Part shown: positions 31,801 through 34,800 of the stretch, in pieces
Position numbering within the stretch: the stretch's first letter is position 1
Layout of the letters: each line of letters opens with the position of its first letter
The notes under the pieces: model-generated
The model's database searches: none
Seen by the model: only the letters and a program-made list of their open reading frames with translations
What the model was told of the DNA's origin: nothing
Translations under genes and position numbers: made by a program
Assembly (NCBI GenBank): GCA_964016885.1
Contig: OZ024746.1
Coordinates: forward strand, 41,044,001 to 41,108,000
Direction: 5' to 3'
DNA length: 64,000 nt
DNA from: Eledone cirrhosa
Lineage: Eukaryota

Positions 31801-34800
31801 ATATACATATATATATATATACATATATATATATATATATATATATACATATATATATACATATACATATATACATATATACATATATGTATGTATGTAT
31901 GTATGTATGTATATATATATATATGTATATATATATGTATATATATATATATATATATATATATATGTATATATATATATATGTATATATATATATATAT
32001 ATATATATATATGTATATATATATATATGTATATATATATATATATATATATATATATATATATATACATATATACATATATGTATATAGATATATGTAT
32101 ATATATATATATATATATATACATATATGTATATATATATATATATATATATATATATATATATATATATACATATATGTATATATATATATATATATAT
32201 ACATATATATATATATATATACATATATGTATATATATATATATATATATACATATATGTATATATATATATATATATATATATATATATATATATATAT
32301 ACATATATGTATATATATATATATATATATATACATATATGTATATATATATATATATATATATATACATATATGTATATATATATATATATATATATAC
32401 ATATATGTATATATATATATATATATATATATACATATATGTATATATATATATATATATATACATATATGTATATATATACATATATATACATATATAT
32501 ATACATATATATATATATATATACATATATATATACATATATATATATATACATATATATATATATATATACATATATATATATATATATACATATATAT
32601 ATATATATATACATATATATATATACATATATATACTCAATGTATTCCGGATATCTTTCCATGATATCCGGAATACATCGAGTTCTTCATACGGATTGGA
32701 CACTACCGTAAACTCTTGGTAGATTTATCTACATATATATATATGTATATATATATATACACATATATATATATATATATATATACACACATATATATAT
32801 ATATATACACACATATATATATATATATATATACACACATATATATATATACACACATATATATATATATATATATATATATATATACACATATATATAT
32901 ATATATACACACATATATATATATATATATATATATATATATATACACATATATATATATATATATACACATATATACACATATATATATATATATATAT
33001 ATACACATATATATATATATACACATATATATACACATATATATACACATATATATACACATATATATACACATATATATACACATATATATATATATAT
33101 ATATATACACATATATATATATATATATATATACACATATATATATATATATATATATATACATATATATATATATATATATATACATATATATATATAT
33201 ATATATACATATATATATATATACATATATATATACATATATATACATATATACATATATACATATATATATACATATATATATATATATATATATATAT
33301 ACACATATATATATACATATATATATACATATATATATATATACACATATATATATATACACACATATATATATAATATATATATACATATATATATATA
33401 TACACATATATATATACATATATATATATACATATATATATATATATACATATATATATATATAATATACATATATATATATACACACATATATATATAT
33501 ATATATATACATATATATATATATACACACATATATATATATATATATATATATATAAATATACATATATATATATATAATATATATACATATATATATA
33601 TATACATATATATATATACATATATAATATACATATATAATACATATATACATATACATATATATACATATATATATACACATATAATATATACATATAT
33701 ATACACATATATATATACAATATATATATACACATATATACACATATATACACATATATATATACACATATATATATATATACAAATATATATACACATA
33801 TATATATACACATATATATATACACATATATATACACATATATACATACACATATATACATACACATATATATATATACACATATATATATATACACATA
33901 CACATATATATATACATATATATACATACACATATATATACATACACATATATATATACATATATATACATACACATATATATATATACATATATATACA
34001 TATATATACATACACATATATATATATACATATATATACATATATATACATACACATATATATATATACATATATATACATATATATACATACACATATA
34101 TATATATACATATATATACATATATATACATACACATATATATATATACATATATATACATATATATACATACACATATATATATATACATATATATACA
34201 TATATATACATACACATATATATATATACATATATATACATATATATACATACACATATATATATATACATATATATACATATATATACATACACATATA
34301 TATATATACATATATAATACATATATATACATACACATATATATATATACATATATATACATATATATACATACACATACATATATATACATATATATAC
34401 ATATATATACATACACATATATATATATACATATATATACATATATATATATACATATATATACATATATATACATACACATACATATATATACATATAT
34501 ATACATACACATACATATATATACATATATATACATACACATACATATATATACATATATATACATACACATACATAATATACATATATATACATACACA
34601 TACATATATATACATATATATACATACACATACATATATATACATATATATACATATATATCACATACACATATATATATATATACATATACATATATAT
34701 ATATATACATATATATACATATATATACATACATATATATATATATACATATATATACATATATATACATACATATATATATATATACATATATATACAT

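Follow-up and report, generated by a model that had tools for sequence, protein, structure and literature searches.

The 98-bp insert

What gives rise to a short inverted repeat that carries a tail at one end only and lies within a TA array? The question is posed by a 98-bp stretch (32635-32732) of the window, i.e., the complete 64,000 nucleotides of Eledone cirrhosa DNA analyzed here (contig OZ024746.1, positions 41,044,001 to 41,108,000). The original prediction took it for the product of a ribozyme-templated, hairpin-generating system: a TA-embedded fold-back with 21-bp arms and a one-sided tail, unrelated in sequence to a pair of twin palindromes in the same window but centered, like these, on stem II of a hammerhead. 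The description itself was confirmed. Positions 32635-32655 pair with 32663-32683 in a 21-bp stem with a single mismatch at 32639 and the loop TTTCCAT, TA/TACA arrays lie on either side, the tail is present at one end only, and direct comparison with the twins detected no sequence similarity. RNA folding of the hairpin gave z values of −6.3 and −7.2, and none of 200 shuffled sequences was equally stable. The parts of the insert are as follows, with E1 being a fixed 3′ end described below.

32636-32729: insert between TA/TACA arrays
32636..32655, minus strand: mirror, 20 nt, a copy of the arm start; 2 nt (TC) are common to both
32654..32729, plus strand: family A arm, the last 76 nt of a Hydra-clade PLE "tail"; ends at E1, then TACATA
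32656..32662, plus strand: loop, 7 nt, normal parental tail sequence
30046..32635, no strand: left target flank, TA/TACA array, interrupted once by 187 nt
32730..35183, no strand: right target flank, TA/TACA array

By its sequence, the 98-bp insert is the 5′-truncated 3′ tail of a Hydra-clade Penelope-like retrotransposon (PLE) within a TA array. The 76-nt arm is 97% identical to the 3′ end of a long copy (L261) of the family that we call A, and its outer end, E1, recurs in the 30 family A loci compared. The apex is read through by 100/100 unselected family A copies (the first 100 matches), and the loop sequence is unchanged in 100/100 listed copies; hence, the fold-back at this apex is a one-off, and the predicted clustering of inversion points was not borne out there. 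An apparent hot spot, with 14 of the first 30 loci breaking at the apex, was refuted by this read-through and had appeared because BLAST puts junction look-alikes on top. The mirror starts mid-tail, at neither E1 nor the second fixed end, E2, and among 40 scored candidates only the window's own copy has it. It likely arose once, via snap-back of a prematurely ended cDNA; the geometry fits cDNA snap-back or an ectopic second priming, both of which yield an identical sequence, and either would be a rare event. Read contigs from four runs were compared with the insert: two runs, from one sample, matched the parental part only, and the other two gave nothing. In sum, the 98-mer itself is ordinary debris.

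The letters gatatcc-GGAA-TACA-TC-GAG, which had been read from the apex toward the tail as the 3′ half of a minimal hammerhead, are present, but the box is GGAA and not GAAA, and 0.3% of ordinary positions in the window match G[AG]AA-N4-UH. Neither CUGANGA nor UUGANAA was found within ~200 nt of the 98-mer on either strand, and a hammerhead with CUGANGA or a U3-A8 box on the 5′ side and GAAA, stem III, and a stem I partner could not be assembled. In the parents, this region is one strand of a tail hairpin without a stem I partner. The full-length relatives, which were expected to carry a CUGANGA box 5′ of the stem, have it in none of the parents. The first reading is thus wrong for the 98-mer and, by position, right for the twins.

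Three families of PLEs and their hammerheads

The 98-mer (family A), the twins (family B), and a third motif at 47928-47989 (family C) derive, as judged from sequence motifs, from three families of Hydra-clade PLEs. A reverse transcriptase (RT; YRDD), a CxCx5C linker, and C-terminal GIY-YIG-type motifs are linked to all three, and these motifs belong to one open reading frame (ORF) that combines RT with a C-terminal GIY-YIG endonuclease, as in EN+ PLEs. Y(I/V)G-T with downstream conserved residues, as well as CxxC and CxH around conserved E and N, were found in A, B, and C; RW and DKT motifs were found in A and C and RW in B, where the DKT region was not seen. Atlas neighbors of the proteins carry GIY-YIG, RVT_1, and HTH_animal, and the best named homologs are from Argonauta hians; a Pfam search gave no curated match, and PDB sequences gave none. 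A pseudo-LTR precedes the ORF as a partial tandem in each family (L318, L333, and L343 in A; L217 in B; L256 in C), with the tail running on into a 5′ untranslated region and the ATG, and the hammerhead motif is inside the pseudo-LTR in A, B, and C. The protein motifs match those that define the Hydra clade, whose members insert into (TA)n and carry hammerheads (PMC8557442; this and all other sources are cited from parts of their text), and an assignment to the Neptune clade was dropped on that ground. Non-LTR retrozymes consist of units in head-to-tail tandem, every one of which contains an entire hammerhead (10.64898/2026.07.22.740005, in part); the insertions studied here are head-to-head and have half a hammerhead or none. 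A MITE or foldback DNA transposon, which would have fixed terminal inverted repeats around a fixed interior, was also rejected: the ends are fixed but, with the tail, unequal, the junctions are variable, and the sequence belongs to the 3′ end of an RT element.

Family A has two fixed 3′ ends, E1 (the end of the 98-mer) and E2, ~130 nt upstream. In the 3.0 Gb of genome searched, an 18-letter tail pattern was found 4,835 times and an upstream pattern 10,049 times, and in three copies (L318, L333, and L343) the tail runs on into a 5′ untranslated region (5′UTR) and an ATG-started ORF. The hammerhead lies upstream of E2, 130 to 260 nt upstream of the 98-mer stretch, in the order stem I (9 to 10 bp), CUGAAGA, stem II, GAAA, palindromic CGAUCG, and U(U/A). 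Stem II is a near-continuous rod of 104 to 116 nt (L136, L139, and 25 further copies). Among 25 selected copies, variation preserves pairing, with compensatory change in 4/43 pairs; the G10.1-C11.1 pair is absent. From sequence and fold, it is a predicted ribozyme, and self-cleavage of the hammerheads of all three families is likewise a prediction. The four clean hammerhead regions gave no hammerhead match with Rfam models, and in a whole-window Rfam search, with 150 of 565 matches listed, microRNA models on TA repeats swamped the result. Stem II of family A is longer than Rfam or the usual descriptors permit. In three further loci (L008, L022, and L330), family A inversions are centered on the palindromic stem III (CGATCG) beside the cleavage site.

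Family B, with 34,004 exact arm matches in the genome, contains the twins, whose parts are given relative to GAAA.

46125..46264, minus strand: twin 1, tailed arm, from E1 to −20; 100% identity to L251
46268..46328, plus strand: twin 1, tail-less arm, from 21 nt upstream of GAAA to E2; hammerhead 3′ half
GAAA 46289, GUC site 46311, stem I strand 46312-46316, plus strand: twin 1, hammerhead 3′ half
50965..51101, minus strand: twin 2, tailed arm, from E1 to −17
51108..51165, plus strand: twin 2, tail-less arm, from −18 to E2

That the twins contain the 3′ half of a hammerhead proved real, but its helices had been misread: CGGCU/AGCCG (or AGCUG) forms stem III around UGAGCUC, and the triplet for cleavage, GUC, stands before GGGGU. 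As predicted, the parents have the 5′ box upstream of a long stem II; they read ACCCC, the box (UUGAGAA or UUGAUAA, which are the U3-A8 variant, or CUGAGAA), stem II, GAAA, a stem III of 5 to 6 bp, and GUC, and for L251, L250, and L254, the minimum-energy fold is the hammerhead three-way junction. Of 34 distinct copies, in a sample enriched for CUGAGAA, 8 have UUGANAA and 26 CUGAGAA in the core. Abundant subfamilies (L097-L125, L147, and L246) have C3 opposite A8, which should impair cleavage, though those subfamilies spread.

The third motif belongs to the young family C (3,058 matches).

47886..48069, minus strand: tail-less arm of family C, from ~5 nt inside the initiator-like boundary described below to E2
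47983-47934, minus strand: minimal hammerhead, complete, with its core at 47983 and its site at 47934

It had been called intact-looking, and rightly so, and the hammerhead is identical in 43/44 among the matches listed; the supposed likeness to the 98-mer in gatatcc is a 7-letter coincidence across families.

The window and the loci around copies hold further repeats. Two open frames nested beside copies (L094:5002-7497 and L252:1794-3149; 832 and 452 aa) belong to further Hydra-type PLE families. A TA-bounded segment at 46795-47663 (minus strand), with tandem repeats and a degenerate hammerhead-like motif near 46990-47030, may represent a fourth PLE family's 3′ end. LINE-type elements in a decayed state, with frames for APE endonuclease and RT, lie amid TA arrays at 35427-41657, 48800-50942, 52102-54071, and 2-775, and other short perfect hairpins (49044-49073, 15 bp; 26666-26708, 14 bp) lie inside SINE- or LINE-like repeats. 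A 205-aa open frame at 22429-23043 (minus strand) is not repeat-like and is possibly a host-gene exon, in which case the repeat cluster may be intronic.

A common boundary of short insertions

Thousands of relatives are head-to-head mini-insertions with arms stopping together at a fixed point. The short insertions join one E1 arm to one E2 arm; in tandem copies, E1 and E2 are downstream of the hammerhead and upstream of the ORF, and E1 is followed by a TA-type repeat in the large majority of copies examined in each family. Arm ends were scored in the first 30 to 100 matches on contig C1, which are not random draws. Of 30 tailed arms of family A, 10 end 5 to 8 nt upstream of the core (one of these scored by eye). 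A further 5 end within the 116-nt stem II, 3 in the tail, and 1 at stem III, and 11 are longer; overall, the short arms stop 4 to 8 nt upstream of the catalytic core, at a boundary that coincides with the 5′ strand of stem I, and 7/8 partners of boundary arms also stop at −4 to −7. In family C, 15 of 30 arms end 79 to 91 nt upstream of the core, none in stem II, and 5 elsewhere, with 10 being longer; the ends span 12 nt, and the boundary lies ~85 nt upstream of the core. In one variant, it coincides with a 6-bp hairpin, and it is unchanged where this hairpin is broken.

In family B, 15 of 100 arms end at −1 to −7 from GAAA, 70 at −11 to −22, and none at −23 to −51, and 15 are longer, a few of the short values being underestimates caused by point mutations. 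Hence, the 3′ side of stem II holds the ends of 85/100 arms; the boundary falls in the upper part of this stem, and a minor cluster sits at the base of the lower helix. Genome counts gave 34,549 matches for the 3′ side and 4,920 for the 5′ side, which are approximate since different patterns were used. An end mode at −16 was produced by a private mutation in the reference and was rescored, and a rare junction picked out by one pattern (69 versus 34,004 matches) was set aside. The expected clustering of inversion points in stem II thus holds for family B, whereas A and C stop outside their long stem II, so a stop in stem II is not what the three families have in common.

The boundaries of A, B, and C all read (T)TTC|A(T/C)T and are initiator-like. 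At their furthest, short arms extend to the A of (T)TTC|ATT (A and B) or TTTC|ACT (C), and family B also uses the A of TT(T/C)|AGT at −18; the ends of B span 11 nt and need two start points, the A at −18 and the A at −22, with twin 1 reaching −20/−21. A TATA-like box lies 29 nt before A(−18) in family B, and AGTTG lies at +28 to +32 in family C; at the family A boundary, a TATA box is absent and the DPE is only partial. An extra G before the boundary A, which would be a sign of cap copying, was scored by eye in only 4/13 family A arms. Of background positions, 0.4% match TT[CT]A[CGT]T, and (T)TTC|A(T/C)T, the TATA-like box, and AGTTG fit the initiator, TATA, and DPE consensus. Since the motif was picked after the boundaries had been seen, we only infer a transcription start from it; with this reading of the sequence, the fixed boundary likely marks the start of the element's RNA. 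The full-length tandem L256 (family C), in which an open frame spans 738 aa, has the order initiator-like site, hammerhead, E2, E1, and ATG, so that its transcript would carry both RT start sites close to its 5′ end. In Penelope, Inr and DPE belong to an internal promoter (PMC2377424, in part), and other pseudo-LTRs carry TATA and TCACT motifs (PMC3846280, in part). A splice acceptor (pyrimidine tract and AG in B and C) was rejected as the boundary: arms often extend into the would-be intron, and a constant upstream exon is lacking.

The pairing of arms is strict in family B. Of 57 adjacent head-to-head pairs, 51 are E1+E2 and 6 are unclassified (split alignments), with no E1+E1 or E2+E2 pair among the 57; E1+E2 pairing is also seen in families A and C. 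In 21/51 pairs, the E2 arm reaches at least 3 nt beyond the E1 arm, and in 11/51, more than 10 nt; in those 11, neither arm can have templated the other because the tail is present on the E1 arm only. Hairpin self-priming could also account for the other 40/51. Both arms end at −1 to −24 in 47 pairs, and no pair combines a stop with a pass; by our arithmetic, independent read-through of 15% would leave about one-quarter of the pairs mixed. Of the unpaired short anchor arms of family B, 5/7 abut TA directly, a count in which a long partner could be missed.

Junction fillers are short tandem re-copies of the boundary or poly(T) (L319, L332, L259/L260, L156, L244, and L264); they bring to mind the telomerase-like addition of repeats where a template ends. 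At four loci (L030, L269, L279, and L283), a short tRNA-like repeat, which resembles octopus SINEs, has its 3′ end joined precisely to the family A boundary; these fusions carry ATTAT microhomology, and the repeat sits upstream of the hammerhead. They suggest jumps between templates at the 5′ end of the RNA or mobilization of a SINE by the PLE. Similar 3′ ends lie in the window near 16548-16598, 18395-18458, 12321-12376, 26658-26709, and 59596-59822.

Origin of the short palindromes

In sum, we favor, with a probability of about two in three, the explanation that the 98-mer is a snap-backed PLE tail and that the twin palindromes come from twin priming and run-off at the 5′ end of the RNA and not from a ribozyme stem. 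In this model, the element protein would nick both strands of (TA)n, and two cDNAs would be primed on one RNA at E1 and E2. Where the 5′ pseudo-LTR sites, 60 to 350 nt from the start, are used, both cDNAs would run off the RNA end and, after slight trimming, would be joined head-to-head by 0 to 5 nt of microhomology or filler; long arms would come from the 3′ pseudo-LTR sites. The family B start site would happen to lie inside stem II, giving the look of a ribozyme-centered fold-back, and the ribozyme would, in our best model, be a passenger in the insertion of short palindromes. Our judgment tips slightly toward the more general claim that PLEs insert "strong-stop" products, i.e., that a dimeric RT-endonuclease primes at both 5′ pseudo-LTR sites and that run-off at the initiator is followed by head-to-head ligation. 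If so, tens of thousands of short palindromes in the genome record the start site of each family, one family has its promoter embedded inside a hammerhead stem II, and inverted repeat and one-sided tail have a single cause.

The boundary may, alternatively, not be an RNA end but a place where RT is halted by folded RNA, namely stem II in B and other helices in A and C, and where two cDNAs are joined. The B ends, located in the 3′ strand of the upper helix of stem II, and the minor cluster at the lower helix base would fit this, as would poly(T) and short repeat fillers, which suggest stuttering. However, A and C pass their own long stem II, the partner of the A boundary strand has already been copied, the C boundary persists without its local hairpin, and independent stalls would give the mixed pairs that were absent among those counted; we therefore regard stalling as unlikely. 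It is also imaginable that a single E1 cDNA ends, at a stall or where the RNA does, folds back, and primes itself, with resolution by the endonuclease at E2, which amounts to the originally predicted mechanism minus the ribozyme. Self-priming, as proposed for PLEs (PMC3846280, in part), would explain the coupled arm lengths automatically, and it fits the palindromic junctions, the subfamily variants common to both arms, and the geometry of the 98-mer (2-nt seed, 7-nt loop). It is nevertheless improbable as the general route, since the tail-less arm goes beyond or misses the tailed arm in the 11/51 B pairs and in A copies like L321 and L323, and none of the loci examined shows the snap-back product expected for the A boundary.

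The combination of stalling in stem II with self-priming, from which the original prediction had derived a hairpin generator for all families, is positionally true of B, and stem II is longer than usual in A, B, and C; but with the 98-mer outside any hammerhead, its apex non-recurrent, A and C stopping elsewhere, and those 11 pairs not self-templatable, it is refuted for A and C, and we give it hardly any credence. Very improbable, too, is that the mirror of the 98-mer is a later replication template switch or an assembly artifact in the TA array. The junction is unique and lies within ~5 kb of low-complexity sequence; yet, the arms differ from each other at one CpG-type site, as in an aged real copy, and both ends meet TA via 1 to 2 nt of microhomology, like other copies.

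Comparison with known systems

The system had been noted as not known to be described. Much of it is already published: for this type of element, hammerheads and insertion into TA have been described, as have tails, inverted copies that are truncated, and self-priming as a hypothesis (PMC4209133, PMC8557442, and PMC3846280, in part), and the inverted repeats and one-sided tails of PLEs have been named as an open question (PMC8557442, in part). An initiator-bounded common 5′ end or counted E1+E2 pairing was not found in the text of the open papers searched. E1+E2 pairing, non-overlapping arms, and coupled stops at the initiator-like boundaries of all three families favor twin priming over the published self-priming. 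Furthermore, such palindromes are prone to misannotation as MITEs or microRNA hairpins.

The Hydra clade (Craig et al. 2021, PMC8557442, in part) also has the C-terminal GIY-YIG-type domain, RW, DKT, CxCx5C, (TA)n insertion, a pseudo-LTR hammerhead, inverted truncated copies, and a tail at one end. In contrast, the tails are ~80 to 130 nt here and 30 to 40 nt there, stem II is 104 to 116 nt here (A), and the sharp common boundary of short insertions is not described in those parts of PMC8557442. The metazoan PLE minimal hammerheads (Cervera and de la Pena 2014, PMC4209133, in part) share the long helix II, the palindromic loop 3, the extra base after A9, U3-A8, a known variant of the PLE core, and paired motifs 100 to 700 bp apart on opposite strands. 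Helix III of B, however, has a full 5 to 6 bp and folds as a monomer, A lacks G10.1-C11.1, and some B subfamilies have C3 opposite A8.

An experimental counterpart is the PAc Poseidon element (Frangieh et al. 2024, PMC11167929, in part), for which RT starts in vitro at two sites that delimit the tail, at an AT-rich target, and both target strands are extended; hammerhead cleavage is not needed for insertion in vitro, as in our model. It belongs to another clade, its start sites are in the ORF and ours in the 5′UTR, and here E1+E2 pairing and a coupled 5′ boundary were counted in genomic insertions. The self-priming model (Arkhipova et al. 2013, PMC3846280, in part) has in common with our data head-to-head junctions with palindromes and TATA- and Inr-like (TCACT) pseudo-LTR motifs, but non-overlapping arms exclude it for at least 11/51 pairs.

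Our findings suggest that genome sequence alone could map PLE promoters. In LINE-1 twin priming, priming occurs a second time, from the opposite strand of the target, and leaves part of the insert inverted, and in retroviral strong-stop synthesis, run-off at the RNA 5′ end yields a short cDNA of fixed length. The insertions described here differ from both in having two fixed priming sites and in that the products of run-off would themselves be inserted.
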